From positions 64,513 to 128,512 of the forward strand of contig JBAZYN010000002.1 of assembly GCA_041659325.1 (NCBI GenBank): a stretch of DNA of 64,000 nt. The letters run 5' to 3'. Numbering within the stretch: position 1 is the stretch's first letter; each line of letters opens with the position of its first letter. The position numbers were made by a program, and so were the translations under genes. This document shows, piece by piece, positions 460 through 28,954 of the stretch. The notes below the pieces were generated by a model that did not search any database, had not been told where the DNA came from, and worked only from the letters and a program-made list of their open reading frames with translations. The DNA is from Candidatus Shapirobacteria bacterium. Lineage in GTDB: Bacteria; Patescibacteriota; Microgenomatia; UBA12405.

Positions 460-461
460 GA

Positions 462-10476: not shown

Positions 10477-10550
10477 GTACCCGTAGCTTAACTGGATAGA
10501 GCACTCCCCTCCGAAGGGAGTGATTGGAGGTTCAAATCCTCTCGGGTACA
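10477..10550 (+). tRNA. tRNA-Arg (anticodon CCG)
   Basis: Acceptor GTACCCG/CGGGTAC, anticodon stem CTCCC/GGGAG with loop CTCCGAA, T-arm GGAGG-TTCAAAT-CCTCT, no encoded CCA; paralogous to the tRNA at 383. Confidence 0.8.
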
Positions 10551-10586
10551 CTCAAACAGTATAAAGTCTAAAAGTCTAAAAATATT

Positions 10587-11087: not shown

Positions 11088-11147
11088 GTTTGGGGGCTTT
11101 TCAATGGTATACTATGAAGTATTTTGACCAGTAATCAGGTATAAATC

Positions 11148-11160
11148 AGGAGAGGTCGGA
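11148..11160 (+). repeat. 13-nt direct duplicate (AGGAGAGGTCGGA) of the 5' end of tRNA-Ser(GGA), 89 nt upstream of the gene
   Basis: Exact repeat seen at 11148-11160 and 11238-11250. Confidence 0.6.
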
Positions 11161-11238
11161 CCCTCCTTCGCTCGAACGGAGCTTCGGACGGGCGAAGTAG
11201 TGGTATCCACGCCGCTGGGTCGATAAAATACAAAGTGA

Positions 11239-11326
11239 GGAGAGGTCGGATAGTGGTTCATTCCACAGACCTGGAAAGTCTGCGCTCCAAAAGGGCTCGC
11301 GGGTTCGAATCCCGCCCTCTCCGCCA
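11239..11326 (+). tRNA. tRNA-Ser (anticodon GGA), type II
   Basis: Acceptor GGAGAGG/CCTCTCC, anticodon stem CAGAC/GTCTG with loop CTGGAAA, long variable arm, T-arm GCGGG-TTCGAAT-CCCGC, encoded CCA. Confidence 0.8.
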
Positions 11327-11480
11327 CGTAAAATTTGCTTTGCAAATTAATGTGGCTGAGACGTGAACGTAATATTTTACGAAGTAAAATTAACGTTCTT
11401 ACGTCTCGCCTAATTAACTCAACGCTGCTGGAACGTAAATTTCGAAGAAATTGTACGTTACCGCCAATTTAAAATCGCAT
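11319..11480 (+). repeat. Repeat R copy B, downstream of tRNA-Ser(GGA)
   Basis: CTCCGCCACGTAAAATTTGCTTTGCAAATTAATGTGGCT followed by the palindrome GAGACGTGAACGTAATATTTTACGAAGTAAAATTAACGTTCTTACGTCTC; homologous to 539-700. Confidence 0.7.
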
Positions 11481-14264: not shown

Positions 14265-14576
14265 AAATTTCTATTTCCCCTTGTTGTTCCGTGTACCATA
14301 GGTTTCATGGTGGCGTATCAATGAATGGCACTCGAAGCTGGTAACAAACTTTCATTGGCTACATCGAGAAAGGTGACCGAAACCCTTCGGCCTAAACAGC
14401 GGCCAAAGTAGCCAAGGTTTTGGTAGTGTCAGAAGAGGAAGTATTTAAGTCGATCATATAGAGGCTCCTAACTATGGGGTATCCTCTACTCAATCGTCGT
14501 GATGTACTTCATTATATTGTTAATTATTCTGTAGTTCCGTATAATCTGATTGCTACCATATAGGGTAGCTTTTTTT

Positions 14577-17558
14577 ATGCCAAAATCATTTGACGATTTA
14601 TTAGATAAAGACCAAATTAAAGAGAGACTGGTAACTGTGGTGGATGCGGAATTGGCTGACAAGATCTCCGAGAAGTTTTGGAGACTGGATTCTTTTGCTA
14701 ACTTGATTTCAATTCCCTTTTTTTTAAACTTTTTGGTTGATTTTCTAAAGGAAACGAGGCTAAAGGGCACATTTAGTAAATATGACTTTTACGGATATCT
14801 ACTTAGAAAAGTGTCTGGTGGCGGTGAATTTTTAGATAAATTAACACAGCTCGCTTTGGTCGTGGAACTGCACCAGGTTAATGAGTTTGACCCGACTGGA
14901 TTTAGTGGAATACTAAACGGCCTTGGAATCAATTCGGAAGATTTAGAGCGGACTGGTTTAATAGAAAAAGACAAAAGGGATGAAAAAGATGTGATCGGTT
15001 TTTGCCACCATACAATTTCCGAATTTTTAGTAGCTAACTTTTTGTTCGGACAGGACGATTTTATCGATAAGTTGGAAAAATTTGCTTTGGTTAAAGATGA
15101 TAAAAATGTATTGGCGATTGCCTTTTCTTGGTATGGGGTAATTAGGTTCTTATTAGACAGCGACAAAAGCATTGAGGTCCGAAATTGGCTGTTAAAACTG
15201 GTGGAGGGCAATAAAGAGTTGGTTGATGATGGTTTTTGTAATGCGATTACTTCTGTTGAATCTAAAGATTTATCCCAAAAAGAGAAAAAATATATTTTTG
15301 ACCTGGTTTATGATACTTATCAGGGTAAAAAGGTATGGTTGCCAATTTGGACCAGAGTCGGGTTGCCTAATTTTTGCGGAAAAGACAGCTATGAGAAGCT
15401 CAAGGTTGATGTTCAAAATGGTAGTGGAACAGAAAGTGATGTCTTGGTGAGAAAAGGAACGGCAGTAGATATAGTTGCCAGATTAATGGAAAGCAATTCC
15501 CCTCTCATCGCCGGTAGTGAAAAAGAATGGTGGAAAGAAAAGTTGGTTGACCTCGCCAACGATGGTAATGACAATGGGGTGGTCCAGAGACACGCTTTGA
15601 CAGCGTTGGCAACTTATCATGACGTGGGTCTCATACCAAGACTGGGGAGATGTCTTAGCCACAAGGATAACCTGGTGAGGGAGGCGTTTATTCAATTTTG
15701 CTCGGAGACTAATCCTAACGATGAGACAACAATCAATCTGTTAGTGAAGGGAATTGTAGAGAAAGGAACGGATATTTACTCGCGACACGGATTTTACCAA
15801 ATTACATCAAAAGAAGGGGTAAAAGTATTTTTAAAACACCTGGTTAATAGTTCTCATTTCCTGAAAAAGTTCCTAGATAAGGAAAGTATTTTTAATAGTA
15901 AAGACAAAAACTCAGATGAGGTTATTGTTAAAAGAATCGAAGAGTTTACAGATACCGAGATTATTGGGCAACTTAAGCAAATTATTAAAAACTCCTTTGA
16001 ACAGGGTGAAATATATGATCAGGGACGGTCATATTTTCTCAAGAGACTAGCTTTAGTTACAGGAATAAATTACCCAGAGTATATTTTTGAACTGATTGAA
16101 AGGATTAGGGAAAGTGACGGGGATAAATGGGGATTAGCATACGATTATAGTGATCTTTTTTCTTGGCTGATAACCACAGAAAATGTAACGGAATTTTATA
16201 AACGGCTTAGTGGTATCAATGAACGTTGTAAAAGGCTCGCAGAAAAGGTGATATATGGCACTAGGTACGGAGACGAGGCTGTCTATAAGACAGCTGTCAA
16301 AAATAGACTGGTAACTAAGATAGAGGACCTTGAGGATCATGTACAGAACCGTGACAGAGATGGAGAAATTCTTAAAGAATTTCGACAGTTTTTGGGGACC
16401 GATAGTGACAAAAAATATTTTCCGTCAGTATTTGAGTATTTTGTCCAAAACCAGAAACTGATCACATCGAAATGGACGAAGCAAGAAAAGGAACGATTAA
16501 AAAAATTGGTAATAAATGAAGGGCTTGAGAAGATTGATCCTAAAAATATTGTAGTAAAAATTCAAAAGAGTGAAGGCGGTAGGGCTAATCAGTACAATAT
16601 TTCAAGAGTGGCGTCATATTTTGGAGACGTGGTAAGGACAGCAATAGTATTAGGATTAAACCTTAATAAATACAGACAAAAGATTATCAACTTTATCCCA
16701 TTTGCCTATTCCGACGATAGGCAGGCAATAAGTGAAGTTGTTGATCAAATAGAAGATAAAGATTTGGCGTGGGTCAACCAAGCCTATGCTGATAAAACTG
16801 GCGATATTAGGTATTTTTTACCGGACTCATATATATATTTAGTTCGAGACTATCGGGAGAAAGGTTGCGAACTTGGTTCAGCAAAAGAGATACTATTGTC
16901 TTTTGCTATAGACGGTGGATTGAGCAACCAGGACAGAAGGTATGCGGTTGAAACACTAGGGGAAATGGTGGACCAAAGTGATTTAGAGATCAAGGATGAA
17001 CTCGAAAAGGATTTAGGGTCAGAAGAAGTTAATAAAGTAGCAATGGATGTATTAATTGCAGTATTTAAAGATGATAGAGCGATAAAAGAAAGAATCGGAC
17101 AGATTAAGGCATGGTCAACAGAAGCAGAAAAATACGCAGTACCAGAATCGGGGGTTTGTCATTCAGTGTCTTCTGTTGAAGAAGAAATGGATGGAATGTC
17201 TTTAGCACAACCACTAATGAAAATGGGTGACGATCGGTACAAAAATGAATTTATCGGTCTTTTAAATTATTCAGTTGAAATATTAAAAGATGATGAGAAA
17301 AAGGAAGTTTTGTGGACCTATGTGAATTACTTATGGAGAACCGTTATTGGATATTTTAACGGATTAGAGAACAAAAACTTTGAGATTATCGGGGAATTGG
17401 AGGACTGGTTAGTCAAAAACAGAGACGTTGATAAGGTTAACTGGTTCGAAGGGAGATTGGTCACACTAAAGCAGTCCTACATAGAAGAAAGTAGTAAAAA
17501 AACCACTAGTAAAGCATTACGAATTATCACAGAAATATATGGCCATATTCATGACTGA
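14577..17558 (+). CDS. large HEAT/ARM-repeat protein with an N-terminal NACHT-like remnant (5'-truncated STAND NTPase?)
   Basis: FCHHTISEFLVANFL resembles the NACHT motif F-x-H-x-S-x-QEFLAA; an upstream PFFLNFL motif resembles the NACHT PLLL motif; there is no Walker A. The frame is closed by TGA at 14547. The ORF-track start is TTG at 14550, with ATG at 14577. Confidence 0.5.
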   Translation: MPKSFDDLLDKDQIKERLVTVVDAELADKISEKFWRLDSFANLISIPFFLNFLVDFLKETRLKGTFSKYDFYGYLLRKVSGGGEFLDKLTQLALVVELHQVNEFDPTGFSGILNGLGINSEDLERTGLIEKDKRDEKDVIGFCHHTISEFLVANFLFGQDDFIDKLEKFALVKDDKNVLAIAFSWYGVIRFLLDSDKSIEVRNWLLKLVEGNKELVDDGFCNAITSVESKDLSQKEKKYIFDLVYDTYQGKKVWLPIWTRVGLPNFCGKDSYEKLKVDVQNGSGTESDVLVRKGTAVDIVARLMESNSPLIAGSEKEWWKEKLVDLANDGNDNGVVQRHALTALATYHDVGLIPRLGRCLSHKDNLVREAFIQFCSETNPNDETTINLLVKGIVEKGTDIYSRHGFYQITSKEGVKVFLKHLVNSSHFLKKFLDKESIFNSKDKNSDEVIVKRIEEFTDTEIIGQLKQIIKNSFEQGEIYDQGRSYFLKRLALVTGINYPEYIFELIERIRESDGDKWGLAYDYSDLFSWLITTENVTEFYKRLSGINERCKRLAEKVIYGTRYGDEAVYKTAVKNRLVTKIEDLEDHVQNRDRDGEILKEFRQFLGTDSDKKYFPSVFEYFVQNQKLITSKWTKQEKERLKKLVINEGLEKIDPKNIVVKIQKSEGGRANQYNISRVASYFGDVVRTAIVLGLNLNKYRQKIINFIPFAYSDDRQAISEVVDQIEDKDLAWVNQAYADKTGDIRYFLPDSYIYLVRDYREKGCELGSAKEILLSFAIDGGLSNQDRRYAVETLGEMVDQSDLEIKDELEKDLGSEEVNKVAMDVLIAVFKDDRAIKERIGQIKAWSTEAEKYAVPESGVCHSVSSVEEEMDGMSLAQPLMKMGDDRYKNEFIGLLNYSVEILKDDEKKEVLWTYVNYLWRTVIGYFNGLENKNFEIIGELEDWLVKNRDVDKVNWFEGRLVTLKQSYIEESSKKTTSKALRIITEIYGHIHD

Positions 17559-18270
17559 CAAAGATGGCCACAATGCTGAATTGAGGTCTGACCGAGAGTA
17601 TCAACCTTATCCTTCTACCGCCAATGAGAAGAGTATAACTGAAGAGCATGTTTTGCGAGATGACCGCCCGATTCCAACACGACCTGTATGTAGAGTGGAG
17701 AGTGTCGACGAAATTTACGGCAAGGTTGTCGCGTTCAGTACCGGACAAGGCCAGGAAAATCCATTGACTGAAAGCGATAATCAGAGTGCAGAAACTGAGA
17801 ACGATACCATCAAAGGGGAGGAAGATCGTTGTATGGAGTTTAAATCTTCCCTAAGGTGGGATTACCACCAAAGTAAAGTGAACACAGAACTTGAGCTTGA
17901 GGTTATTATAGAGATGGCCGCTTTTCTAAATACTAAAGGAGGACAGGTTATAATTGGGGTGAATGATGAAGGGTGTATTCTAGGACTTGATAACGACTTT
18001 AAAACTTTAGGAAAAAAGCAAAATAGAGATGGTTTTGGGCTTCAATTGGATAATCTTATCAGTAATTTTTTGGGTGGCGGAGTTTATCCGTACATAACGC
18101 TGGAATTCCAACAAAAGAATGAAAAAGATATTTGTATAATAAGAGCCAAAAGATGTAACCATGAAGTTTATGTAGGAAAAGATAGGGATTTTTATATTAG
18201 ACGGTTTAAATCCAAGGTGAAATTAAATAGCGAAGAAGCACATCGATATATTAATGAAAATTGGAGGTAA
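17539..18270 (+). CDS. AlbA_2 (Schlafen-like) domain protein
   Basis: EFK...W and GG.VIIGVNDEG.ILG motifs characteristic of Pfam AlbA_2; overlaps the upstream gene by 20 nt. Confidence 0.55.
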   Translation: MAIFMTDKDGHNAELRSDREYQPYPSTANEKSITEEHVLRDDRPIPTRPVCRVESVDEIYGKVVAFSTGQGQENPLTESDNQSAETENDTIKGEEDRCMEFKSSLRWDYHQSKVNTELELEVIIEMAAFLNTKGGQVIIGVNDEGCILGLDNDFKTLGKKQNRDGFGLQLDNLISNFLGGGVYPYITLEFQQKNEKDICIIRAKRCNHEVYVGKDRDFYIRRFKSKVKLNSEEAHRYINENWR

Positions 18271-19842: not shown

Positions 19843-19961
19843 GTTGAGTTGATATTTTGTCTATGCGGAACCTAATGAAGGAGAAAAAGTCAGATATAGT
19901 TTGGTTTTGTAATCAATTACATAAGTATCTTGCTGTTTTTGGTTTATAATATGCGGGCAAG

Positions 19962-20660
19962 ATGGATTACCAAGAGGAATATATACATAAGCACCCTAGC
20001 TTACACCTAGAGCAGGCGCAGCTGAAAGCTAAACAAATATTGGATTTTTTAGGACCAATTAAAATTAATTCTTTATTAGATATTGGTTGCGGGTCTGGTG
20101 GAATAACAGAAATTTTAAAAGATTATCTTAAGCCTACTAAAGTGGTAGGCGTAGACATATCACAAACAATGATTCTGGCTGCCAGAGAGCGCGATAAAAT
20201 GAAACGGATAGAGTGGATATGCGAGGATATTCTTACATATCATTCCAAAACCAGATTTGACCTTGTGGTTGGTGTCGATATTCTAGAACACATAAGCGAT
20301 GACGTGGAATTACTAAAAATAATTCACCGACTGGGAAAAAAGGTGCTGATTAAAGTACCGATGGAGGATTCCTTTTTAGATAACCAAGTGATTCGGAAAC
20401 TAGGAATAAGTGACTCATGGAAAGAAAGCGAAAGAAAATATGGACATATTCACCACTACAATGAAAGACAACTACTAGAAATCTACAAGGGTGCTGGTTT
20501 TAGAATTATTAAATCGGGCTACATTCCCTTACCAAGAAGATCAAAGATGTTATACGAAGTCTTGAGAGTGTTATTCTTGCCGCTTGGATGGTTTTCAAAA
20601 AAAGCAGTAGCAAATTTTGTTGGTGGGTTTAAAATAGTATTAATGGAGCCGAGTAAATGA
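19962..20660 (+). CDS. class I SAM-dependent methyltransferase
   Basis: Motif I LDIGCGSGGIT. Confidence 0.75.
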   Translation: MDYQEEYIHKHPSLHLEQAQLKAKQILDFLGPIKINSLLDIGCGSGGITEILKDYLKPTKVVGVDISQTMILAARERDKMKRIEWICEDILTYHSKTRFDLVVGVDILEHISDDVELLKIIHRLGKKVLIKVPMEDSFLDNQVIRKLGISDSWKESERKYGHIHHYNERQLLEIYKGAGFRIIKSGYIPLPRRSKMLYEVLRVLFLPLGWFSKKAVANFVGGFKIVLMEPSK

Positions 20661-21157
20661 AGAATATAGAGCCTAAAGTTACAGAATTCTTCGTCTTCGA
20701 TGGTAGAAAGATTCAATTAAGTTGGTTTTTGGGTTTGCCAGATCCATCTCTAAAAGTTAGTCAGGTAAGTGCTTATTGTATCTATATAAAAAAGTTAATA
20801 CTGGTGAAAAATAAGAGGGGTTGGGGTATACCGGGCGGACATCCGGAAGATCATGAAACATGTGAACAGGCACTGAAAAGAGAGTTGTATGAGGAGGTAG
20901 GTATTGAAAAGAATTTTCAATCCAAACTAATAGGTTGGATGAAAGTAGAAGACCCGGGAAATCCAGGCCTTGAGGGAAAAGTTAGTATTCAGCTGAGATA
21001 TGTAATAATATTAGATGAACTACCAGCATTTACTCCTAACCCAGAAATCTTCGAACGGAGGCTGGTAGATATTAATGATTTTGACAAGTATGTCAGTTGG
21101 GCTTCTAGCCCGACCGGAAGAGCGCAAATCAGCGCGTTAATTTTAAATTTGATATGA
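20657..21157 (+). CDS. NUDIX hydrolase
   Basis: Nudix box GGHPEDHETCEQALKRELYEEVGI; 4-nt overlap with the upstream gene. Confidence 0.7.
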   Translation: MKNIEPKVTEFFVFDGRKIQLSWFLGLPDPSLKVSQVSAYCIYIKKLILVKNKRGWGIPGGHPEDHETCEQALKRELYEEVGIEKNFQSKLIGWMKVEDPGNPGLEGKVSIQLRYVIILDELPAFTPNPEIFERRLVDINDFDKYVSWASSPTGRAQISALILNLI

Positions 21158-22266
21158 AAATAGCTATTTATCAACCAAGAATTAGTTATTATGTTGGCGG
21201 CGGCGAAGTCGTACCTTTAGAGATGGCAAAGTATTTTGCTAAACATAATCACGAAGTAACCATTGTCACGGCCCGCCACCCGGAGGGTGATTCTGAATAT
21301 TTCAGAGATTTTTTAAAGTTAAATTCTGCCATCAAAACAGTGTACCTTGATATTCCTCGTGCCTTAAAATGGATTTATAACGAAAAACCAGGGACCAACC
21401 AATTGAGATGGGACTACGAAGCAGTACACGCGGGGAGATTGGCTCAATCTTATTTTGAAAAAAATGATTTTGATATATTAAACGTACATTACCGCGTGGA
21501 TATTCTGGCTGCCAATATTCGTTATCCGACAGTTATGTTTTTACATGGTGTGCCGGCTGAAGCAGAATATTTTGATAAGGTTTGGTATTCATTTCCAAAC
21601 GTAAAATATATATCCGTTTCAAAGTACATTGGGGAAAAGTGGTCAAACTTGGTAGGAGGATTGGAATACGATGTCTTTACCAACGGTGTTGATACTTCTT
21701 ATTTCCATCCGATAGATATCATCAAAGATATAGATGTTCTATATTTCGGAAGATTAGTTCCGGTCAAAGGAGTAAGTTATCTGATTGAGGCGATAAAAAT
21801 CTTGGTTGGCAAAAACTATTCACCCAAGGTTGTCATTGCCGGAAAAGGTAACCAGAGAGAAGAGCTAGAAGAACAAATGAAGAAACTGCAATTATTAAAG
21901 TATATTGATTTTGTAGGATACGTACCACAGAATCAGGTTCTTGAGCTGTATAACCGCTCTAAATTACTGGCGGCTCCGTCTTTTGATAGAGAAGGCGTAT
22001 TAACAACAATGCTAGAGGCTGCTGCTTGCGGAGTACCGACAGTAACTACAAATAGCTGTAGTATGCCTGAGTTCATAACCCACACCGTGAACGGATTGTT
22101 AGCGGAACCACAAGACTCGATGTCTTTAGCATCAGAAATAGAGAAGATACTAAGTAATACAAGCTTTGCCAAAAGATTGGGTAAAGAAGCAAGAAAGAAA
22201 GCCGAGGCTTGGAATTGGGAAAACAAATCCAGAGAATTAGAGAAATATTTTGAAAATGCTAGGTGA
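21154..22266 (+). CDS. glycosyltransferase family 1 (GT4-like)
   Basis: C-terminal EGVLTTMLEAAACGVPTV motif and Rossmann GT-B pattern. Confidence 0.8.
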   Translation: MKIAIYQPRISYYVGGGEVVPLEMAKYFAKHNHEVTIVTARHPEGDSEYFRDFLKLNSAIKTVYLDIPRALKWIYNEKPGTNQLRWDYEAVHAGRLAQSYFEKNDFDILNVHYRVDILAANIRYPTVMFLHGVPAEAEYFDKVWYSFPNVKYISVSKYIGEKWSNLVGGLEYDVFTNGVDTSYFHPIDIIKDIDVLYFGRLVPVKGVSYLIEAIKILVGKNYSPKVVIAGKGNQREELEEQMKKLQLLKYIDFVGYVPQNQVLELYNRSKLLAAPSFDREGVLTTMLEAAACGVPTVTTNSCSMPEFITHTVNGLLAEPQDSMSLASEIEKILSNTSFAKRLGKEARKKAEAWNWENKSRELEKYFENAR

Positions 22267-23131
22267 CAAGTTTTCATCATTAGTTTATTCCGGAGGGGTA
22301 ACGTTAAAAATCGTTTTTGATAATGGAGATTTAAGGGAACGGGTGCTAGGCAATTCATTTATACAAAAATATATCCCTGGGTTAAAAATTCTTACAGGTG
22401 AGGCAGCTGATGCGGCTATACACTTTGTGGATAAGGATATTTTTTTTCAATTCGATAGTTATCCAAAAATAATTATTGGAGCAAGGGACTTGTCGGAAAA
22501 AGATATCATTTCTCTAGTTGAATTAGCACTTGAGCGAGCCAGACAAGAAAGATGTGTATATTGTATTCATTCGGCGGCGGCGGTATTCAAAAACCGAGTA
22601 GTAGTCTTTTGGGGCGGAGCGTCAGGTATGGGTAAAACAAGACTGGCTCAAGAGTTGACTAAACAGGGAGGAGATTTTTACTCTGATGAAAAAACGCTGA
22701 TAGATCTAAATACAATGGAAGCGATGGGGGGTATTGCTTTTCAATTTCTTGACAAAGCATACTGGAGAGAGAAAAGAACAAGCATTAACTCTGATTCCTA
22801 TTATAAGGTTGAGTGCAACTTTGCCACTCCCCTCCCTCTGGGATTATTTGTCTATGGTTTTGCAATTGACGGCGCAATAGAAAGTGCCGAGAAGTGGACC
22901 GCAGAAAAATTTGAATGGCACCTGTACGAAGAGTTGGGGAGGAAGATCAGAGCCATATCCAGGAGAGTAAAGAATGGCAGTGTGTCCGTGCCATCTTTGG
23001 ATACTCAAAAAAACGCTGATAGACGGATCCAATACGTGCGGAGACTGACAACAAACATTCCGTGCTACTCTATTCAGGGATCAGACGAAAGTATAATAAA
23101 ATACATTAAAAAGCTAGAATTATGGAAATAA
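22250..23131 (+). CDS. P-loop kinase related to the HPr kinase/phosphorylase C-terminal domain
   Basis: VVVFWGGASGMGKTRLAQELTKQGGDFYSDEKTLID parallels the HprK pattern G.SG.GKS..ALEL..RG..LVADD. Confidence 0.45.
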   Translation: MKMLGDKFSSLVYSGGVTLKIVFDNGDLRERVLGNSFIQKYIPGLKILTGEAADAAIHFVDKDIFFQFDSYPKIIIGARDLSEKDIISLVELALERARQERCVYCIHSAAAVFKNRVVVFWGGASGMGKTRLAQELTKQGGDFYSDEKTLIDLNTMEAMGGIAFQFLDKAYWREKRTSINSDSYYKVECNFATPLPLGLFVYGFAIDGAIESAEKWTAEKFEWHLYEELGRKIRAISRRVKNGSVSVPSLDTQKNADRRIQYVRRLTTNIPCYSIQGSDESIIKYIKKLELWK

Positions 23132-23766
23132 GACCCGATGATTTTTCTAACCGGTTTAGTGATATGAAAAGATTCTGTGAACCGTCTTTATCGCCAGAGG
23201 AGATAGGGAATTGTATTGGGATGGTCTTGTTTAAACCGGATGCCACCAAGTCACTTCTTGATTTGCCTATTATGGAATATATTGAAAGAGAACTGGAAGA
23301 ATCCACGGGGCAAACAGTAGGGCTGTTTGCTTTTTGCCTGAAAAAAGTAAAGCCAGGGGAGGTGCGGAAGCTATATCCAGAAGAAAGAAATGAACAATAT
23401 TTAAAATATATCCAAGATCATTTTAGTGGTGGCGATGTCTACGTGGTGCTGGTAGCGGCGAGAAATGCGCCCGAATCATTGAATAGAATTAAAGGTAGTA
23501 TTAGGACTGGCAGCGGGATAAGGGGAAATTTTTGCCAGAATGCTCCTATTGGTGAAGAAAGCATGGACGACTGGAAGGCCGGTAAGTTAGATCCCGATAC
23601 GACTAGAAGAATTGGCATAGAACTTTTTGCTGCTAATTTGGTGCATGTCCCAGACGACAGAGAAGGCACTATTAGGGCAATAGAATTATTGTATCCTCCT
23701 AAAGAAATTGATAAAATGAGGGCATCCATTCCGATATTTGCTAAATGGTTGGAATATGAACAGTAA
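23122..23766 (+). CDS. nucleoside diphosphate kinase-like protein (divergent)
   Basis: LFKPDA near the N-terminus and NLVHVPDDREGTIRAIELLY resemble the NDK motifs IKPDG and N.IHGSD...A.REI..F. Confidence 0.4.
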   Translation: MEIRPDDFSNRFSDMKRFCEPSLSPEEIGNCIGMVLFKPDATKSLLDLPIMEYIERELEESTGQTVGLFAFCLKKVKPGEVRKLYPEERNEQYLKYIQDHFSGGDVYVVLVAARNAPESLNRIKGSIRTGSGIRGNFCQNAPIGEESMDDWKAGKLDPDTTRRIGIELFAANLVHVPDDREGTIRAIELLYPPKEIDKMRASIPIFAKWLEYEQ

Positions 23767-24253
23767 TACAAAAATAGTAACCGTGGTTAGAGCGGTGTTT
23801 AGGCTCGAAAACCAATACTTGGTGGTAGAACAAATAAATGCATCGGGTAATACTTATTTATTGTTTCCCGGGGGACATGCCGATCCAGGAGAATCACTAG
23901 TTACAGCGATCAAACGGGAAGTGGCGGAGGAACTAAATGTCGAAAAGTGTATTCCCAAAAAGATTATTTTTGTCAAAGAGACGCTAACTCCATTTGATCG
24001 AACTTTTGAGTATTTCTTTGAGTGTGAACCAAGTATGTATATTACAGATATAAGAGTTAAACAGAAAGAATATACTGGATATGAAGGTATTAAACGATGT
24101 CTATGGAAAAGTGCAATAGATTTGGAAACAGACAATAAATTTTTCCCTAAACACTTCTTTTCCAAGGATAATTATCAATATTTGGAGCTAAACATAGATC
24201 AATACAAAGATTTGTATGGTAATGATAGAAATATTAAAGCTTTATACATATGA
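23738..24253 (+). CDS. NUDIX hydrolase
   Basis: Nudix box GGHADPGESLVTAIKREVAEELNV. Confidence 0.7.
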   Translation: MLNGWNMNSNTKIVTVVRAVFRLENQYLVVEQINASGNTYLLFPGGHADPGESLVTAIKREVAEELNVEKCIPKKIIFVKETLTPFDRTFEYFFECEPSMYITDIRVKQKEYTGYEGIKRCLWKSAIDLETDNKFFPKHFFSKDNYQYLELNIDQYKDLYGNDRNIKALYI

Positions 24254-25827
24254 GAACCCAAGACGGTACTGACCAAATAATCAGAGATATTTGTCCTTTC
24301 AGTGATAATGAACAGGTAAAAGGATTGCTAAAAGACTTAGCCAGTGAATTCGGCTTCCCCAGAACAAAAAGGGTTTTAACTCTGTATTTTGATAACGATG
24401 TGCGATTAAGATGTGATGAAAATGATGTATTTTTGGGTCAAAAGATAAAAGCGAAATCAATGGAAACATATAGAGAAGCCAAAATGAAGTCGAAGTATAT
24501 TGGCTTGGTCATTGGTATGTTGTCGACAATGGGGCTAAAAAAAGCGGCTATAAGCAACGTAATAGAGATGACTTTTGTAGATGAGGAGAATTTTAAATTG
24601 GTTTACCTGGGTGACACTTTAATTTCCAAACATCAATTTGAGATTTCGTTATTGGGGATAGCTAAATATAAATCTAAAGTTTTAGACAAAATACTAAAAA
24701 ACAAATTGGGGTATTCGGACTTGGTGGAGAAGACAGCAAATATTGCCACAGAACAGATTATCGATGAAATGGGGGTGTTAAATGACAAAATTATTAGTTT
24801 CTGCAAAGAAACAAACTTGAGTCTTGGTCAAACAACCAACACCTCCTATTATTATCAGATATGCTCTGTTTCAAATGATTACTCCGGACTAGCGGAATTT
24901 TTTAAATTAATTACTGGCCATGAAATATGTGATCCGAATCCGTCTCCAGTAAATTTTATCCAAAGGCTACCTTCTGTTTCTGTAATAATTCCCGCTTATA
25001 ATCTGAGTGAGTCAGTCTTGAAAACCCTAAAGTCCCTTGAAAGACAGGACCATGAAATTAACTACGAAGTAATAATTGTAGACGATTGTTCGAAAAAACC
25101 AATTACAGAACAATTAATTCAAGTCCAGGGTGAATTGTTGCATCGACCGATAATAATTAGAAAAGAAAAAAATACCGGTAGTGCTCAAGCGAGGAATGTG
25201 GGTGCTTCTGTGGCTTCAAATGACATCCTATTGTTCGTTGACGGGGATGTGGTGTTGACTCCAAACTATTTATATGAACACCTAATCAGACATAAATTGT
25301 TCAACAAGTCCGTCCTGGTAAGCTTTAAAGAAAACGTAAATTTCGATGACCCAAGAATATCTTATGAGGCCATCCAGCAAGGTGTGCTTTTGCCAAATTA
25401 TCAAAACGATCTACGAGTGACTAAATACATTGATAAGGACACTATGGGCTATTACCCCAGTAATTATATGGAGAGAGGAGACATTTTTTCAATATTATCT
25501 GAGACTAATTATTTTAAAACTTTAAGCTATGGCAGGAGAATAGGTAACTACGATTTACCATCGATGGTAATTGGCCACAACTTTTCTATACCCAACAGCT
25601 TCTTTCGGGCAATAGGTGGTTTTGATAATAAGCTAATTGGATATGGGCTAGAAGATACTTTTTTGGGTATGGTAGCCGTCGCTGCAGGCGCGTTTATAGT
25701 ACCGGTATTGGCTTGTGGCGTGTATCATATCGATCACCCAACCAGACGAGGTGATTTAAATAAGTTAAGACAGGAATTCAGAGAAAATTCTGAAATTATC
25801 GAAAACTTTTTATCTACAAGTGAATAA
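24250..25827 (+). CDS. two-domain protein: unknown N-terminal domain plus C-terminal family 2 glycosyltransferase
   Basis: VSVIIPAYN...YEVIIVDDCS...LFVDGD (GT-A DxD) in the C-terminal half. Confidence 0.7.
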   Translation: MRTQDGTDQIIRDICPFSDNEQVKGLLKDLASEFGFPRTKRVLTLYFDNDVRLRCDENDVFLGQKIKAKSMETYREAKMKSKYIGLVIGMLSTMGLKKAAISNVIEMTFVDEENFKLVYLGDTLISKHQFEISLLGIAKYKSKVLDKILKNKLGYSDLVEKTANIATEQIIDEMGVLNDKIISFCKETNLSLGQTTNTSYYYQICSVSNDYSGLAEFFKLITGHEICDPNPSPVNFIQRLPSVSVIIPAYNLSESVLKTLKSLERQDHEINYEVIIVDDCSKKPITEQLIQVQGELLHRPIIIRKEKNTGSAQARNVGASVASNDILLFVDGDVVLTPNYLYEHLIRHKLFNKSVLVSFKENVNFDDPRISYEAIQQGVLLPNYQNDLRVTKYIDKDTMGYYPSNYMERGDIFSILSETNYFKTLSYGRRIGNYDLPSMVIGHNFSIPNSFFRAIGGFDNKLIGYGLEDTFLGMVAVAAGAFIVPVLACGVYHIDHPTRRGDLNKLRQEFRENSEIIENFLSTSE

Positions 25828-26516
25828 TGAATACACTGTTTTTGGATTTTGCGGAAACTTTGGGCTATCGTAATATTTCAGAATTTGAGAGTGATTTAAA
25901 GATAATAAGCAAATATGCAGAACTTGATCCCGGATTAATTAGCAAAAAATATAAAGGCTATCTAAGGATCAGCCAATTTTACGATAGGTCTTTGAGCTTT
26001 AAGGACTTTAAAGCCGAACTGGAATTTACAACTAAACACTTTAGTCGCTTTTTGACTAAAGAGTTAGACATTCCTAATGGGGAATTTATAGGTGAAAAAA
26101 TTGCAACTGATAAGTACCAAACACTTACCCATAGTTTTTTCCCTGAAGTAGGTGATGCTCTGACGCATTATGCGAAAGATAGTCAAATTTACATCCTATC
26201 GGATGGTAGACCGAGTAGGCGGAATACTTTGGATTTGCTAGGTTTAAACCAATTTTGTAAAGGGTATTTTATCTCCGACGAGGTCGGTTTTGTCAAAAGT
26301 GATACTGGTTTTTATAACAAAGTATTACAAAAAATAGGCATAAAAGGTAAGGTCTATTTTATAGATGATGCAATAGATAACCTTAATGCATTTTGTAAGG
26401 TATTGAGAGTCGAATGTATATTAATGGACAGAAAACATCTTCTAGATAAAAAGGGGTTAAAATATTTGGTGTTGGATAGCTTGCCATCACTGCTATATCT
26501 AAATGAAAGAAACTAG
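25827..26516 (+). CDS. HAD-superfamily hydrolase-like protein
   Basis: C-terminal VYFIDDAIDNL resembles HAD motif IV; weak. Confidence 0.4.
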   Translation: MNTLFLDFAETLGYRNISEFESDLKIISKYAELDPGLISKKYKGYLRISQFYDRSLSFKDFKAELEFTTKHFSRFLTKELDIPNGEFIGEKIATDKYQTLTHSFFPEVGDALTHYAKDSQIYILSDGRPSRRNTLDLLGLNQFCKGYFISDEVGFVKSDTGFYNKVLQKIGIKGKVYFIDDAIDNLNAFCKVLRVECILMDRKHLLDKKGLKYLVLDSLPSLLYLNERN

Positions 26517-27039
26517 TTCCGGTCAACCGGAGATGGTTGAGTGGAGAGGGAAAAGATATTTATATCAATGGATAGAGGGTGGGAATGAACATTTGTTTGA
26601 ACCCCGAACTTTAGTCCATATTATATGTTTTGACAACTTTGGTAATGTTTTGATACAACACGAGAACGATGAATGGCGGTTTCCCGGAGGAGGAAGTGAG
26701 GAAAATGAATCACTCGAGGCTACAGTAACCAGAGAAGCCATAGAGGAAACTGGTATTGTGCCCGCAGAGATTCAGCTACTCGGTGCTTTTAAGGTCCAAA
26801 AATTGTCAGCAGTGGAAAGCCCATATTTTCAACTATGCGCATTTTGTAGAGCAGGTGAGAGACGGGAACGAATACCTTCCTCAGAAAATGCGGAGATCGA
26901 TGAGGTAAGGTTCGTGTCACCTGTGGAAATTCCAGAATATATCAAATGGGGGAAGCACGGAGCAGAGATGTTTGATACTGCATGGTCACATTTTAGGTCA
27001 CTGCCGGAAATGACTAAAGAAATAGTTGGGCCACATTAG
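26503..27039 (+). CDS. NUDIX hydrolase
   Basis: Nudix box GGGSEENESLEATVTREAIEETGI. Confidence 0.7.
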   Translation: MKETSSGQPEMVEWRGKRYLYQWIEGGNEHLFEPRTLVHIICFDNFGNVLIQHENDEWRFPGGGSEENESLEATVTREAIEETGIVPAEIQLLGAFKVQKLSAVESPYFQLCAFCRAGERRERIPSSENAEIDEVRFVSPVEIPEYIKWGKHGAEMFDTAWSHFRSLPEMTKEIVGPH

Positions 27040-27231: not shown

Positions 27232-27513
27232 ATGATAAATAAGGAACAGATAGACTGGCTGAACAATAATCAAGGATTAGTTGCCGTAATTCTTTTTCTT
27301 ATGACATTGGTAATCGCCTGGATTTCAGGACTTTTCAAATGGCTTTTTGGGAGAAATGATAGAAAAAATCCATACATAAGTGTTGGTGGAGATATCAAGA
27401 CGGGAGGTAATATTTCAGTTGGCAACAAAACATTCAATCAAAAAGGGGGCAAAAATAGTAAGAATATTCAGGGCGAGAATATTACAGTAAACAAATATGG
27501 CAAAGATAAGTAA
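27232..27513 (+). CDS. hypothetical membrane-anchored protein with Gly/Asn-rich repeats
   Basis: One TM helix, then GGDIKTGGNISVGNK-type repeats; probably the N-terminal part of a gene frameshifted into the next ORF. Confidence 0.4.
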   Translation: MINKEQIDWLNNNQGLVAVILFLMTLVIAWISGLFKWLFGRNDRKNPYISVGGDIKTGGNISVGNKTFNQKGGKNSKNIQGENITVNKYGKDK

Positions 27514-28552
27514 CCAAAAATCAGGTGATGAGTCGACAAATCTACAAGCCGGTAGAGATATTACTGTTAATAACCACAAAGTTGCCCTCTTTTCGATTGA
27601 AGAGGTAGCCAAGCAACTTATGAGCTCTGTTTTTAACGAACTACCAGATCAAACAAAAAGACAAATAGAAAAAAATCAAAAATCATACTTTCGGACTCTT
27701 TCAGAAAACCTAGGAAAAATAATAAAACAAAATAATGATTTAAAAAAGATTATTGATTCTCCCGACTTTCAATATATTTCTAAAACTGCATCAATTTCTG
27801 CAAGCCGGTCGTCTTCTTTGGAATTACACAACAATTTGTCATCGTTAATTATTCAAAGAATAAACAACGACGATGATGACTTGAAAAGAATTGTTTTTAA
27901 TGAGGCAATTGCTACCATCGGCAAACTGACGACAAATCAACTAAAAATTATTACCCTGTGCTATTTATTGAACTATACATTAGACGGGAGAATAGTTTCT
28001 TGGGAAGCATATAATAATTATTTAGACTCACACATAAAGCCATTTTTGGATTTTAAGGATACAGAAATAGAATTTCAACACATTGAATATGCGGGGTGCG
28101 GAAGTATTGGAATTGGGAGTTCGGATATCCTGAATAGTTACCGAAAGCGGTACTCATTTTTGTTTTTAAATTTAATTGAGAAACGGCAAATTGACCGCCT
28201 TGGTCTTAAAGATGAAATCAAAAAGGAACTAGTTACTTTGGACCCGAAAGAAGACAAATATCTTATCAGATTTATAAATAAAATCGAGGTAGAAGCCTAT
28301 TTAAAAGAGATGAAAATTGACAAGGAGCTTGCAAAAAAATTAGTAACTATTTATGAGGGTCATATAAAAAATAGCATAGAAATAAAAAAGAAAATAGTCG
28401 ACGAAACAAACACCGGCAAAGAATTGTTAGAGTTGTGGGAGAAATCAAATCTCAAACACTTATTTTTGACATCTGTCGGAATTGCAATCGGGGCTAGTTA
28501 TTTTGAACAAATAATTGGCGAAAAAATAGATATTGGTATGTGGATAAATTAA
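27497..28552 (+). CDS. hypothetical protein (probable continuation of the 27232 gene after a frameshift)
   Basis: The N-terminus continues the same repeat type (QAGRDITVNNHK); overlaps the upstream ORF by 17 nt within an A-rich run. Confidence 0.45.
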   Translation: MAKISNQKSGDESTNLQAGRDITVNNHKVALFSIEEVAKQLMSSVFNELPDQTKRQIEKNQKSYFRTLSENLGKIIKQNNDLKKIIDSPDFQYISKTASISASRSSSLELHNNLSSLIIQRINNDDDDLKRIVFNEAIATIGKLTTNQLKIITLCYLLNYTLDGRIVSWEAYNNYLDSHIKPFLDFKDTEIEFQHIEYAGCGSIGIGSSDILNSYRKRYSFLFLNLIEKRQIDRLGLKDEIKKELVTLDPKEDKYLIRFINKIEVEAYLKEMKIDKELAKKLVTIYEGHIKNSIEIKKKIVDETNTGKELLELWEKSNLKHLFLTSVGIAIGASYFEQIIGEKIDIGMWIN

Positions 28553-28585: not shown

Positions 28586-28954
28586 TTAAGGCTTGACTTC
28601 CATAAAAACAATATGGCCCGCCCGGTCGTTTTCGTTGATGGAAATCTCATTGTCGGAAGCATTAAACATTTCCAGAGTAATAGTGCCCTCAAACCCCGGG
28701 TCGATAAACATGCTTCCCAGGTGGGTCATCATTCCCTGTTTTGATATTTTGGCGCAACCATCGTAAAACCCAGCGATATGGGCAGGTAATGAAACTTTCT
28801 CTTTTGAATTTGTTATCCGGAACTCTTTGGGTTTAAGAACAAATGTTTCTGAAAAATGAATTTTTATAGATGCTTCTTTGACTTGCGGGGTCGGCTGAAT
28901 CTTTAATTCTCCACTATCCAGTAATTTATTAATTTGGTTGCCGCTTAGTATCAT
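28586..28954 (-). CDS. dCTP deaminase / dUTPase-fold protein (short)
   Basis: N-terminus MILSGNQINKLLDSGELKIQP and FIDPGFEGTITLEMFN match Dcd/dUTPase family motifs; only 122 aa. Confidence 0.55.
   Translation of the reverse strand: MILSGNQINKLLDSGELKIQPTPQVKEASIKIHFSETFVLKPKEFRITNSKEKVSLPAHIAGFYDGCAKISKQGMMTHLGSMFIDPGFEGTITLEMFNASDNEISINENDRAGHIVFMEVKP

Follow-up and report, generated by a model that had tools for sequence, protein, structure and literature searches.

A nine-gene overlapping operon of Candidatus Shapirobacteria, built around a PEPCK/HprK-like protein, that probably makes a sugar-containing compound

What might be made by an operon that combines glycosyltransferases, NUDIX hydrolases, a methyltransferase, a kinase-like P-loop protein and further nucleotide- and phosphate-handling enzymes? 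This question is raised by a block of nine overlapping genes in a 64,000-nucleotide stretch of a Candidatus Shapirobacteria genome (hereafter the window, whose first letter is position 1). The genes, their conservation in other genomes and the possible pathways are described below.

Structure of the operon

All nine open reading frames were recovered on the forward strand, exactly where the first-pass annotation had placed them (Table 1). As it had claimed, all eight junctions overlap, by 4, 4, 17, 10, 29, 4, 1 and 14 nt, with the size at the junctions into genes 4 and 6 depending on the chosen start codon: public gene callers start these genes at ATG 22256 (291 aa) and ATG 23756 (165 aa), respectively, which reduces the gene 3/4 and gene 5/6 overlaps to 11 nt each. 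The block spans 7078 nt with zero intergenic bases, and neither promoter-like sites (26 vs 24.6 expected) nor terminator-like sites (7 vs 5.0 expected) are enriched within it. A TATAAT hexamer upstream of gene 1 may represent the -10 element of the operon; the consensus promoter scan, in which a -35 hexamer was also required, did not report it. Pfam domains were matched by eight of the nine genes, and the exception, gene 4 (K), has 51 database homologs and a confidently predicted fold (pLDDT 94), so that the genes are real rather than chance reading frames. The nine overlapping genes are confirmed as a real operon.

Table 1. Features of the nine-gene block (positions refer to the window).
Feature	Position	Strand	Description
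TATAAT hexamer	19945..19950	+	12 nt upstream of gene 1 start; direct sequence read
Gene 1	19962..20660	+	Class I SAM-dependent methyltransferase; 232 aa; Pfam Methyltransf_23/25/12/11, E 1e-15 to 1e-17
Gene 2	20657..21157	+	NUDIX hydrolase, cassette-wide conserved type; 166 aa; Pfam NUDIX 7e-13
Gene 3	21154..22266	+	GT4 (GT-B, retaining-type) glycosyltransferase; 370 aa; Pfam Glycos_transf_1 8.6e-41, Glyco_transf_4
Gene 4 (K)	22250..23131	+	PEPCK/HprK-superfamily P-loop phosphotransferase; 293 aa (291 aa from second start)
Gene 5	23122..23766	+	Divergent nucleoside-diphosphate-kinase-like protein; 214 aa; Pfam NDK 1.8e-5
Gene 6	23738..24253	+	Second NUDIX hydrolase; 171 aa (165 aa from second start); Pfam NUDIX 7.7e-10
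Gene 7, N-terminal domain	24250..24966	+	Residues 1-239; degenerate CYTH/triphosphate-tunnel (TTM) fold with helical appendix
Gene 7, C-terminal domain	24967..25827	+	GT2 (GT-A) glycosyltransferase; Pfam Glycos_transf_2 3.8e-24, Glyco_transf_7C
Gene 8	25827..26516	+	HAD-superfamily (type IA-like) hydrolase; 229 aa; Pfam Hydrolase 1.7e-6
Gene 9	26503..27039	+	Third NUDIX hydrolase; 178 aa; Pfam NUDIX 9e-16

Every domain assignment made at first pass holds: gene 1 as a class I methyltransferase, genes 2, 6 and 9 as NUDIX proteins, gene 3 as a GT4 (then named 'GT1' after the Pfam clan), gene 4 as an HprK-like protein with a P-loop, gene 5 as a diverged NDK, gene 7 as a GT2 preceded by an additional domain and gene 8 as HAD-like. 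The assignments of the P-loop and the NDK, singled out earlier as open to error, are both right. Catalytic motifs are intact in K, the GT4, the GT2, the NDK-like protein and the three NUDIX proteins. None of the nine proteins has a membrane segment or signal peptide, and no flippase or transporter is among them.

The closest solved structures of gene 1, which has orthologs in cassettes L006, L007, L024, L025 and L027, are small-molecule methyltransferases (PH0226, phosphoethanolamine N-MT, ToxA, NodS). Gene 2, whose Nudix box GHPEDHETCEQALKRELYEEVGI is intact and whose PDB profile matches are generic only (MutT, Ap4A hydrolase, DIPP, RppH), belongs to a family that adjoins the GT4 in nearly all bacterial-type loci. 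Gene 6 has orthologs only in cassettes L006 and L007, and its box GHADPGESLVTAIKREVAEELNV keeps all catalytic Glu/Arg residues, the sole change being the terminal G to N; that of gene 9, GGSEENESLEATVTREAIEETGI, is intact, and L006 carries a related copy of gene 9 at the equivalent position. The Pfam NDK score of gene 5, 25.1 bits, lies slightly under the gathering score of 27; its family profile matches solved NDKs at 1.2e-18 with the catalytic-His segment aligned. In this family K38, Y85 and H175 are invariant, R134 and N172 nearly so, and these residues align with the Lys, Tyr, His, Arg and Asn of E. coli Ndk; K124 is likewise invariant. For gene 8, the earlier 'HAD-type phosphatase' stands as regards the HAD-like fold, including motifs II to IV. 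Motif I, however, reads D-F-A-E-T (D-L-G-N/D-T in relatives) and is missing the Asp+2 general acid, so gene 8 may not be a phosphatase.

In the GT4, G15-G16-x-E18 and E280-x7-E288 are invariant among 23 orthologs, and the best solved relatives are BshA, SPS, PglH, PglA, MshA, TarM and PimA/B, with MGlcDAG synthase also among the matches. Invariant residues of the GT2 are D278/D279, D331-x-D333, E468/D469 and H493; its best solved relatives are the chondroitin synthase K4CP (1e-31), TarS, TarP, GalT1 and ppGalNAc-T. The domain preceding it lacks the ExExK motif as well as conserved basic or acidic residues in the tunnel, in contrast to the CYTH/TTM enzymes YgiF, class IV adenylyl cyclase, Cet1 and Vtc4, and its helical appendix holds an invariant S-N-D-Y motif. 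From these enzymes, and from the non-catalytic Med18/Med20 fold, it further differs in its fusion to a GT2; no published description of this TTM-GT2 architecture was found.

S-repeat copies are present on both sides of the block (motif matches at 19813 and 27059). The suggestion that they make it a cassette did not survive, since the repeat occurs in at least seven intergenic gaps of the Shapirobacteria genome and is absent from every other cassette-carrying genome. Gene overlaps are frequent elsewhere in the window (e.g. 1126, 5871-5902, 17539-17558, 41902-41905 and 58366-58382), and a dCTP-deaminase-like gene lies within it 1.5 kb downstream of the block.

K and the conserved core of the cassette

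K is the signature gene of the cassette and encodes a rare PEPCK/HPr-kinase-like enzyme. The P-loop and HprK likeness noted earlier is real, with the qualification that PEPCK is equally close: alignments with HprK span only 117-147 residues, compared to 230 with PEPCK, and the N-terminal half is similar to PEPCK and not to the HprK N-domain. The HprK C-domain fold, that of HPr kinase/phosphorylase and HprK-family RiPP kinases, is present, and the motif layout (His, ~14 residues, G-x-S-G-x-G-K-[ST], acidic pair) is shared with HprK, the lasso-peptide PsmK/PadeK type, Haft's HprK-related kinases A/B and ScmC. All curated HprK-type models score K far below threshold, and about a quarter of its homologs carry the precomputed Pfam label ScmC, which we take to be a family from radical-SAM peptide-modification cassettes. 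ATP-dependent PEPCK differs from K in length (~520-540 vs ~290 aa), sequence (~15% identity), substrate-binding elaborations, most of which are missing from K, and context, which is gluconeogenesis rather than glycosylation. Unlike in HprK and RiPP-kinase settings, no HPr/PTS context, precursor peptide, lasso or radical-SAM maturase accompanies K.

Across 33 loci, K co-occurs with NUDIX (33/33), GT4 (32/33) and GT2 (30/33) genes. The core of the cassette consists of K together with a NUDIX pyrophosphatase and two glycosyltransferases, a GT4 of the retaining type and a GT2 of the GT-A type. Many ultrasmall bacteria (CPR) and archaea (DPANN) carry this core as a unit, and the Shapirobacteria block is the Microgenomates version of the cassette. 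The search of other genomes for this gene order recovered all nine genes in identical order in Collierbacteria and eight of the nine in another Shapirobacteria genome, with unrelated flanks in both. Together with the eight overlapping junctions and the lack of an internal promoter or terminator excess, this conservation identifies the block as one unit. GT4 and K are translationally coupled, the GT4 stop overlapping or abutting the K start in 23/23 bacterial-type loci.

The accessory genes vary. All 23 bacterial-type loci include a nucleotide kinase, which belongs to an NDK-like, an NMPK-like or, in L038, a dTMP-kinase-like family; archaeal-type cassettes have neither a nucleotide kinase nor a HAD. 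The number of glycosyltransferases per locus ranges from two to three and that of NUDIX genes from one to three; L023 and L024 have a sugar-1-P nucleotidyltransferase next to the cassette. Gene 7-type and C3-type GT2 proteins, the latter with a marginally hydrophobic C-terminal helix, are not orthologous, so cassette variants may make different products. Fusions of GT2 to HAD(IIB) (L008, L021), of GT2 to NUDIX (L016) and of a SAM-fold domain to K (P0114/L038) indicate that the parts share one substrate and strengthen the single-pathway reading of the first-pass annotation. In line with that annotation, which saw no known nucleotide-sugar or cell-wall operon in the block, our analysis matched it to no known operon.

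A possible route to a small glycoside

We tentatively propose, with a probability of roughly 0.4, that the operon encodes an assembly line of soluble cytoplasmic enzymes that use nucleotide-sugars to build a small glycoside or a short oligosaccharide conjugate. K would phosphorylate the acceptor or the first glycosylated intermediate with ATP as donor, the two glycosyltransferases would add two sugars taken from NDP-sugars, the HAD hydrolase would strip phosphate off an intermediate and the methyltransferase would cap the product. Sucrose, mannosylglycerate, glucosylglycerate and mycothiol synthesis would provide the precedent for this order of kinase, glycosyl-phospho-acceptor synthase and phosphatase. 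The nucleotide enzymes may recycle a scarce pool in organisms incapable of de novo nucleotide synthesis, with the NDK-like protein turning NDP released by the glycosyltransferases back into NTP and the NUDIX proteins splitting NDP-sugars or NDP-linked by-products into NMP and sugar-phosphate. As for the degenerate TTM domain, it most probably binds a ligand or the acceptor without being catalytic.

GT-HAD-IIB fusions or pairs are a hallmark of two-step glycoside synthesis (SPS/SPP, MpgS/MpgP, OtsA/OtsB, GgpS/GgpP). As in these systems, GpgS/GpgP and MshA/MshA2, the cassette pairs, and often fuses, a glycosyltransferase with a HAD protein; its Cof-type HADs fall into the same HAD-IIB group (its HAD-IIB proteins match the Cof, SPP, MPGP and phosphoglycolate-phosphatase subfamilies), its GT4 is similar to SPS, MshA and BshA, and all proteins are soluble and cytoplasmic, with no export machinery. 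The proximity of the GT4 to enzymes with small-molecule acceptors (BshA, SPS and MshA, among others) and of the methyltransferase to small-molecule enzymes supports the glycoside route. The absence of membrane or export components and the presence in both bacteria and archaea, which differ in envelopes and lipids, favour a soluble product or universal acceptor, and a nucleotide kinase that is constant in presence yet variable in family fits generic nucleotide recycling.

Other features set the cassette apart from these systems or argue against the glycoside route. The fused glycosyltransferase is a GT2 rather than a GT20, GT55, GT78, GT81 or SPS-type GT4, and its nearest relatives are polymer- or protein-modifying GT-A enzymes, not GpgS/MpgS. 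The known two-step systems lack a second glycosyltransferase, a PEPCK/HprK-fold kinase, the one to three NUDIX proteins and a nucleotide kinase. Within the window the HAD resembles type IA and lacks Asp+2, and the proposed phosphatase step is not universal, as the archaeal cassettes have no HAD. Of all roles in the scheme, that of NUDIX is the least well defined, yet no other accessory enzyme is universal. Those relatives of K that have been characterised use proteins or peptides or, in the case of PEPCK, oxaloacetate as substrates, rather than sugars.

Alternative pathways

The last point leads to a different, though unlikely, scenario, in which K would be a Ser/Thr kinase acting on a cytoplasmic protein or small peptide, GT4 and GT2 would build a short glycan on or near the phosphosite, the methyltransferase would cap it, HAD and NUDIX would reverse or edit the modification and the degenerate TTM domain would recognise the target. 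The HprK C-domain fold and motifs of K, the ScmC labels and the relatives of the GT2 domain are consistent with it, and the tight coupling of GT4 to K would be in keeping with a modification complex. HprK/P and the lasso-peptide kinases have protein or peptide substrates; in lasso-peptide clusters, HprK-family kinases place a phosphate on the C-terminal Ser, and this phosphate subsequently receives hexoses, as in the pseudomycoidin cluster (PMC6993621). The glycosyl partner there is the nucleotidyltransferase-like PsmN, whereas K is accompanied by a classical GT4 and GT2. Moreover, no conserved precursor peptide, maturase, radical-SAM or candidate target gene adjoins the cassette in the 33 loci, the HprK alignment is short compared to that of PEPCK, and the recruitment of a nucleotide kinase, of HAD-IIB proteins that resemble sugar phosphatases and of one to three NUDIX proteins, as well as their fusion to GT2, would be left unexplained.

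Synthesis or decoration of an envelope precursor (glycolipid, teichoic-acid-like polymer, S-layer or pilus glycan) at the cytoplasmic membrane face, which would bear on an episymbiotic, attachment-dependent lifestyle, is distinctly improbable. Resemblance of the GT4 to PimA/PimB, MGlcDAG synthase, TarM and PglH and of the GT2 to TarS, TarP and K4CP, the marginally hydrophobic helix of the C3-type GT2 and a number of glycosyltransferases that varies between loci, as in glycan clusters, point in this direction. NUDIX could tune NDP-sugar levels, as Gmm/WcaH, the NUDIX NDP-sugar hydrolase of the colanic acid cluster, and such polysaccharide clusters likewise place GT2 and GT4 genes beside a donor-acting NUDIX. 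They differ, however, in that they include genes for nucleotide-sugar synthesis and for membrane-bound proteins of priming, flipping and polymerisation, and in having no K-fold kinase or NDK-like gene. No cassette locus contains a flippase, polymerase, priming phosphoglycosyltransferase, transporter or true membrane protein, the cassette is common to bacteria and archaea despite their unlike lipids and walls, and no role would be left for K or the nucleotide kinases.

The 'glycosylated nucleotide' idea of the first-pass annotation is very unlikely. NUDIX would convert NTP to NMP, the methyltransferase or another enzyme would modify the NMP, K, NMPK-like and NDK-like proteins would restore the NTP, the HAD nucleotidase would clean the pool and the glycosyltransferases would glycosylate the nucleotide or DNA/RNA, a logic similar to hydroxymethylcytosine glucosylation in T-even phages. 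It draws on the density of nucleotide enzymes (three NUDIX, NDK-like, NMPK- or dTMP-kinase-like in variants), the best, weak NCBIfam match of gene 8 to YjjG-type (noncanonical) pyrimidine nucleotidase (1.4e-5, far under its cutoff), the binding of triphosphates and RNA 5' ends by TTM folds elsewhere and the downstream dCTP-deaminase-like gene. That gene is not conserved together with the cassette, however, the TTM domain has lost its catalytic and charged tunnel residues, and enzymes of base modification (thymidylate-synthase-like, hydroxylase, deazapurine) are absent. K relatives were found neither on 2.9 million viral contigs nor among phage structures, and PADLOC returned no defence matches besides generic methyltransferase and NUDIX models.

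Although gene overlap is frequent in this compact genome, synteny and gene fusions effectively refute a mere packing of unrelated housekeeping genes, as the K-GT4-NUDIX-GT2 association is kept in 30 to 33 of 33 loci from two domains with unrelated flanks and components are fused in several genomes.

The cassette probably makes a sugar-containing compound.

Organisation of the operon and its conservation across genomes

The nine plus-strand open reading frames (ORFs) of the cassette were located exactly where the first-pass annotation had placed them (see table), with overlaps at all eight junctions (in order: 4, 4, 17, 10, 29, 4, 1 and 14 nt). In public gene calls, translation of gene 4 begins at ATG 22256 instead of the TTG used here, and that of gene 6 at ATG 23756, so that both overlaps become 11 nt. 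The block comprises 7078 nt with zero non-coding bases, has a GC content (0.379) near that of its surroundings in the window and contains promoter- or terminator-like consensus sites no more often than shuffled sequence. The proteins of genes 4 and 7 match, without a difference, database entries from a 335-kb contig of a Candidatus Shapirobacteria MAG (CPR/Patescibacteria, Microgenomates). A TATAAT hexamer is situated 12 nt upstream of gene 1. An Rfam scan of the window returned four tRNAs only, with no riboswitch upstream of the operon.

Features of the window and of related loci (positions within the window unless a locus, L0xx, is named)
Feature	Position	Strand	Description
Gene 1	19962-20660	+	methyltransferase (MT)
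Gene 2	20657-21157	+	NUDIX
Gene 3	21154-22266	+	GT4
Gene 4	22250-23131	+	kinase-like protein K
Gene 5	23122-23766	+	NDK-like
Gene 6	23738-24253	+	NUDIX
Gene 7	24250-25827	+	TTM domain fused to GT2
Gene 8	25827-26516	+	HAD-like
Gene 9	26503-27039	+	NUDIX
S-repeat copies	14208, 18785, 19813, 27059, 28999, 29766, 34579	+	
tRNA set 1	383-694		tRNA-Arg/tRNA-Ser
tRNA set 2	10477-11415		tRNA-Arg/tRNA-Ser
HEAT-repeat protein	14550-17558		1002 aa
Schlafen AlbA_2-domain protein	17539-18270		243 aa
Small ORF	27232-27513		93 aa
Vpar_1526	27497-28552		351 aa, precomputed label PF28206
dCTP-deaminase/dUTPase-like protein	28586-28954	-	122 aa
Tandem-repeat ORF	56457-58382		641 aa
Tandem block 1	56984-57041		8-nt unit
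Tandem block 2	57491-57548		8-nt unit
GT2-NUDIX fusion	L016:1934-3334	-	466 aa, cassette variant
BpsA_C-K fusion (P0114)	L038:1094-3013		
Vault-domain protein	L003:1-1747		PF11978
Vault-domain protein	L004:1-1764		PF11978

The S-repeat consists of a conserved core of ~24 nt (CATAAAATAGGTTCTAACTGCGTA), followed by ~40 nt that are less similar. Its motif was matched six times, with 0.69 matches expected; the copies are always on the plus strand and intergenic, often starting ~2-60 nt from a plus-strand stop codon. The earlier proposal that the repeat borders the cassette did not hold, as it occupies at least seven intergenic gaps and was seen in this genome only, being absent from the other fetched cassette loci save those of the same organism's second assembly. 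Its copies lie on either side of the operon simply because no intergenic gaps exist between the nine genes. The S-repeat therefore does not speak for a mobile cassette; a terminator, promoter or REP-like role is possible for it.

Several other features of the window were recorded. Conserved repeats of ~60 nt (D7/D8, 82-88% identity) lie downstream of each of the two tRNA sets (anticodons GCG, CGA; CCG, GGA), which look like a duplicated tRNA-plus-trailer module, with the copies ~10.7 kb apart. Just upstream of the cassette region, the gene for a Schlafen AlbA_2-domain protein overlaps the end of the HEAT-repeat gene, both proteins being unusual for a CPR genome. Downstream, the small ORF, whose product has a hydrophobic helix at its N-terminus and a tail rich in Gly, Asn and Lys, overlaps the start of the Vpar_1526 gene. 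The dCTP-deaminase/dUTPase-like protein was matched by the DCD profile in its C-terminal part only and may be a truncated or minimal dUTPase-fold protein; its gene does not accompany the cassette elsewhere. Blocks of 8-nt tandem units (GTCTTAAA/GTCGAAAA), ~500 nt apart, lie within a 641-aa ORF.

A scan for relatives of gene 4, with one genome per GTDB species, yielded 32 genomes, labelled as Collier-, Shapiro-, Ames-, Buchanan-, Lloyd-, Dojka- and Saccharibacteria, Paceibacterota, WWE3 and Pace- or Woesearchaeota, besides some deposited as Clostridia, Bacillales or Gammaproteobacteria. Together with loci from metagenome assemblies, 33 non-redundant loci were obtained, in which neighbours were counted up to 6 kb from the K gene. 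A NUDIX gene was present in all 33 loci, GT4 in 32 and GT2 in 30 (missing in L023 and in L014 and L032, whose contigs end near the cassette). The loci fall into a bacterial-type and an archaeal-type arrangement. A nucleotide kinase is encoded in 23/23 bacterial-type loci (NDK-like in 18, P-loop NMP-kinase-like in five) and in 0/10 archaeal-type loci; a HAD hydrolase is encoded in 19 of the 23 bacterial-type loci and in none of the archaeal type, where apparent matches were an artefact of fusion-protein splitting and mapped to the GT2 ORF itself. Class I methyltransferase genes were found in at least nine loci. In every bacterial-type locus, the stop codon of GT4 overlaps or abuts the start of K.

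The complete nine-gene order recurs in Candidatus Collierbacteria (L002/L006; 54-70% identity), and another Shapirobacteria genome (L007) retains eight of the nine genes with their order kept. The flanks are unlike in these genomes: an aldo-keto reductase gene and Vpar_1526 in the window, UvrA and Hsp70 genes in Collierbacteria, and different ones again in L007. Shared gene order with differing flanks indicates that the block behaves as a unit. Conservation in relatives, proposed as a test in the first-pass annotation, was therefore found, both for the full order and, in 30-33 of the 33 loci, for the core. This four-gene core (K, GT4, GT2 and NUDIX) is common to both domains of life.

Gene fusions point to one pathway for the components, independently of the other evidence. 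Two loci (L008, L021) encode GT2 and a Cof-type (HAD-IIB) phosphatase as a single protein, and a HAD-IIB gene adjoins a glycosyltransferase gene in ~12 further ones. A fusion of GT2 with the cassette NUDIX occurs in a genome deposited as Candidatus Saccharibacteria (L016); in the GT2 protein of the window and 25 homologs, the fused partner is a TTM-like domain. In L038, K is fused to a BpsA_C domain (branched-chain polyamine synthase-type, class I SAM/dcSAM fold) in the gene order [SAM-fold-K]-NUDIX-GT4-GT2-dTMP-kinase-like; a SAM-dependent aminopropyl or methyl transfer onto the substrate of K is one possibility. A sugar-1-phosphate nucleotidyltransferase gene adjoins the cassette in L023 and L024. 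On a Candidatus Buchananbacteria contig (L003, L004), a protein of ~1030-1040 aa with a major-vault-protein shoulder domain is encoded ~8 kb from the cassette.

Predicted activities of the encoded proteins

K, the gene 4 protein, shares with HprK/P a PEPCK-like C-terminal catalytic domain with a His, a P-loop (GxSGxGK[ST]) and an acidic pair downstream. However, the two are alignable over 117-147 residues only, and the N-terminal half of K aligns with PEPCK instead of the HprK N-terminal domain. No Pfam model, Hpr_kinase_C/N included, matched at E ≤ 0.01, and the NCBIfam scores were 26.6 bits for HprK_rel_B and 18.3 bits for HprK_rel_A (cutoff 200 each). HPr or PTS genes were absent from the inspected gene tables of the cassette loci. 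The two-domain PEPCK fold, with a metal-binding His and a kinase-1a P-loop, is as in ATP-PEPCK, but that enzyme has ~520-540 aa compared with the 293 aa of K, identity is 15% and PEPCK models gave no match to K. The precomputed label PF27840 (ScmC, a SynChlorMet cassette protein) is attached to 12 of the 52 members of the K family and absent from the entry of the window's own K (P0001). ScmC is encoded next to radical-SAM/SPASM peptide maturases. No radical-SAM protein occurred among the Pfam-annotated neighbours checked, and the cassette families were the sole recurrent neighbours in the 33 loci. No weight was given to a weak 2-phosphoglycerate kinase match (E 0.008) that gene 4 showed in the P-loop region only.

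The gene 3 product is a GT4 enzyme of the GT-B fold (Pfam E 8.6e-41) with invariant E280-x7-E288 (EX7E) and G15-G16-x-E18 motifs. Full-length PDB matches extended down to 2e-31, the nearest being BshA, SPS, PglH/PglA, MshA, TarM and PimA/B, with a resemblance to SPS, MshA and BshA no stronger than that to PglH or TarM. The GT4-conflict model (PF20706) scored far below the generic GT1 domain. The GT2 part of gene 7 (GT-A fold with DXD; Pfam E 3.8e-24) has invariant D331-x-D333, D278/D279, E468/D469 and H493 and is nearest to K4CP, TarS and TarP, GpgS reaching only 2e-6, far under the cutoff. Its N-terminal domain adopts the eight-stranded beta-tunnel (CYTH/TTM) fold, lacks the ExExK motif and gave no Pfam CYTH match; across the TTM strands of 22 homologs, no position reached 70% conserved charge. 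An active triphosphatase or cyclase was rejected for this domain, because the catalytic and charged residues are missing.

Gene 5 alone scored just under the Pfam threshold for NDK (25.1 bits; gathering score 27), whereas a profile of its family (13 members) retrieved solved NDKs, with 118 sequences at E ≤ 1 and a top E value of 1.2e-18. K38, Y85 and H175 do not vary and R134 and N172 hardly do; all five align with their counterparts in E. coli Ndk, and the catalytic-His segment KNVIHTADD aligns to KNVIHASDS. The family profile and the conserved Lys, Tyr, Arg, Asn and His of the active site thus bear out the original NDK-like call. At 214 aa with a ~40-aa insert before the His, gene 5 differs from the compact NDK domain of ~140-150 aa, and its NDK activity is a prediction from sequence. 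Genes 2, 6 and 9 are matched by Pfam NUDIX at E 1e-10 to 1e-16. The Nudix box GX5EX7REUXEEXGU is complete in genes 2 and 9, while gene 6 keeps every Glu and Arg and replaces the terminal G by N. Every NCBIfam equivalog match for the three proteins fell far under its cutoff, and PDB profile matches were scattered over MutT, Ap4A hydrolase, DIPP, RppH and ADPRase, pointing to no single substrate-specific subfamily.

Motif I of gene 8 reads D-F-A-E-T (D-L-G-N/D-T in relatives), with the nucleophile Asp present and the Asp+2 general acid absent; HAD motifs II (S/T), III (K) and IV (DD) are conserved in a six-member alignment. Phosphatase activity is hence plausible but not assured. Gene 1 encodes a class I SAM methyltransferase whose nearest solved structures are small-molecule methyltransferases.

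Proposed pathway and alternative explanations

No convincing membrane segment was seen in the nine proteins, and genes for a flippase, a transporter, a priming transferase, a precursor peptide or a maturase are absent from every locus. Given this lack of membrane parts and maturation genes, and the occurrence of the cassette behind both bacterial and archaeal envelopes, we consider it more likely that the product is soluble or the acceptor universal. Glycoside synthesis via a phosphorylated intermediate is marked by a HAD-IIB phosphatase that is paired or fused with a glycosyltransferase (SPS/SPP, MpgS/MpgP, OtsA/OtsB, GgpS/GgpP). Combined, these pointers led to a model in which K would phosphorylate an acceptor or the first glycosylated intermediate, GT4 and GT2 would add two sugars from NDP-sugars, the HAD protein would take off the phosphate and the methyltransferase would cap the product. 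By-products would be recycled by the NDK-like protein (NDP to NTP) and the NUDIX proteins (NDP-X to NMP + X-P). Such recycling would matter where de novo nucleotide synthesis is lacking, as is generally held for CPR and DPANN organisms. The model as a whole, which argues from analogy, was given a probability of roughly 0.4. It is weakened because GT2 resembles polymer- or protein-modifying enzymes, the HAD protein of the window is atypical, archaeal versions have no HAD protein, NUDIX is universal yet least defined in role and, to our knowledge, no sugar kinase has the PEPCK/HprK fold. The GT-HAD-IIB pairing of the known two-step synthase/phosphatase systems is found in relatives of the cassette, whereas the window's own HAD protein is type IA-like and archaeal-type loci have none; nor do the cassette GT2 and GT4 belong to the known glycosyl-phospho-acceptor synthase families (GT20, GT55, GT78, GT81, SPS).

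Phospho-glycosylation of a protein or peptide, which the relationship of K to HprK would suit, was judged unlikely. It has a precedent in a lasso peptide whose C-terminal Ser is phosphorylated by an HprK-family kinase before hexoses are added (PMC6993621), but no conserved target or maturase gene accompanies the cassette. A lasso peptide/RiPP cluster as such was rejected, with a precursor, cyclase or radical-SAM gene found in no locus. Less probable still is synthesis of an envelope glycoconjugate precursor, since membrane components are absent and the cassette is common to two domains of life. Modification of nucleotides or nucleic acids appears very improbable, given that there is no base-modifying enzyme, no phage relative and no defence-system match. 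K relatives were not found on viral contigs, BFVD returning giant-virus PEPCK only. A defence or conflict system was rejected on these viral searches and on PADLOC, which reported a generic methyltransferase plus NUDIX (PDC-S07) only and nothing for K, GT4, GT2, the NDK-like or the HAD protein. Chance packing of unrelated genes is effectively excluded.

Distribution and significance of the cassette

The cassette appears to be restricted to and common to CPR bacteria and DPANN archaea, although the deposited labels of some metagenome-assembled genomes (MAGs) say otherwise, and to have been exchanged between the two groups. MAGs carrying eight loci (L014, L017-L020, L022, L023, L026) were deposited as Clostridia, Clostridiales, Bacillales or Gammaproteobacteria. 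Locus L029 bears a Dojkabacteria label, yet has an archaeal-type arrangement that almost matches the one in L028, from Pacearchaeota. The taxonomy given for these bins and for L029 may be unreliable; if the Clostridia, Bacillales and Gammaproteobacteria labels were correct, the cassette would reach beyond CPR and DPANN.

We class the operon as a glycosyltransferase-centred biosynthetic cassette. Literature searches on ScmC/SynChlorMet and on CPR/DPANN in connection with Nudix, NDK, glycosyltransferase or HPr kinase turned up no account of it, and its composition is unlike that of any known operon or system. New features are the obligate coupling of a PEPCK/HprK-fold kinase to GT4, the dedicated NUDIX and NDK-like partners and the fusion of a degenerate TTM domain to GT2. 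As each protein comes from a known superfamily, this is not categorically new biology on present evidence. It is rather doubtful that the cassette represents an undescribed, episymbiont-specific system exchanged between CPR and DPANN, in which the first glycosyltransferase-coupled PEPCK/HprK-fold kinase makes a new phospho-glycoside metabolite or sets a new phospho-glycan mark on a universal macromolecule (protein or RNA) while dedicated NUDIX and NDK enzymes conserve nucleotides that the cells are unable to make.

CPR and DPANN organisms make up a large share of microbial diversity, yet no function is known for most of the genes specific to these lineages. With its four to nine genes, the cassette is compact, and at its centre stands a kinase family that is rare, structurally well defined and without a characterised member. 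Because its components are all soluble enzymes with intact catalytic motifs (save for the Asp+2 of gene 8), it is directly testable by expression and metabolomics. Knowledge of its product would bring to light either a class of metabolites or a macromolecular modification that is new, or else a way of sparing nucleotides in organisms that rely on hosts for them. The degenerate TTM domain fused to GT2 and the PEPCK/HprK superfamily branch formed by K, itself new, would thereby gain a function as well.
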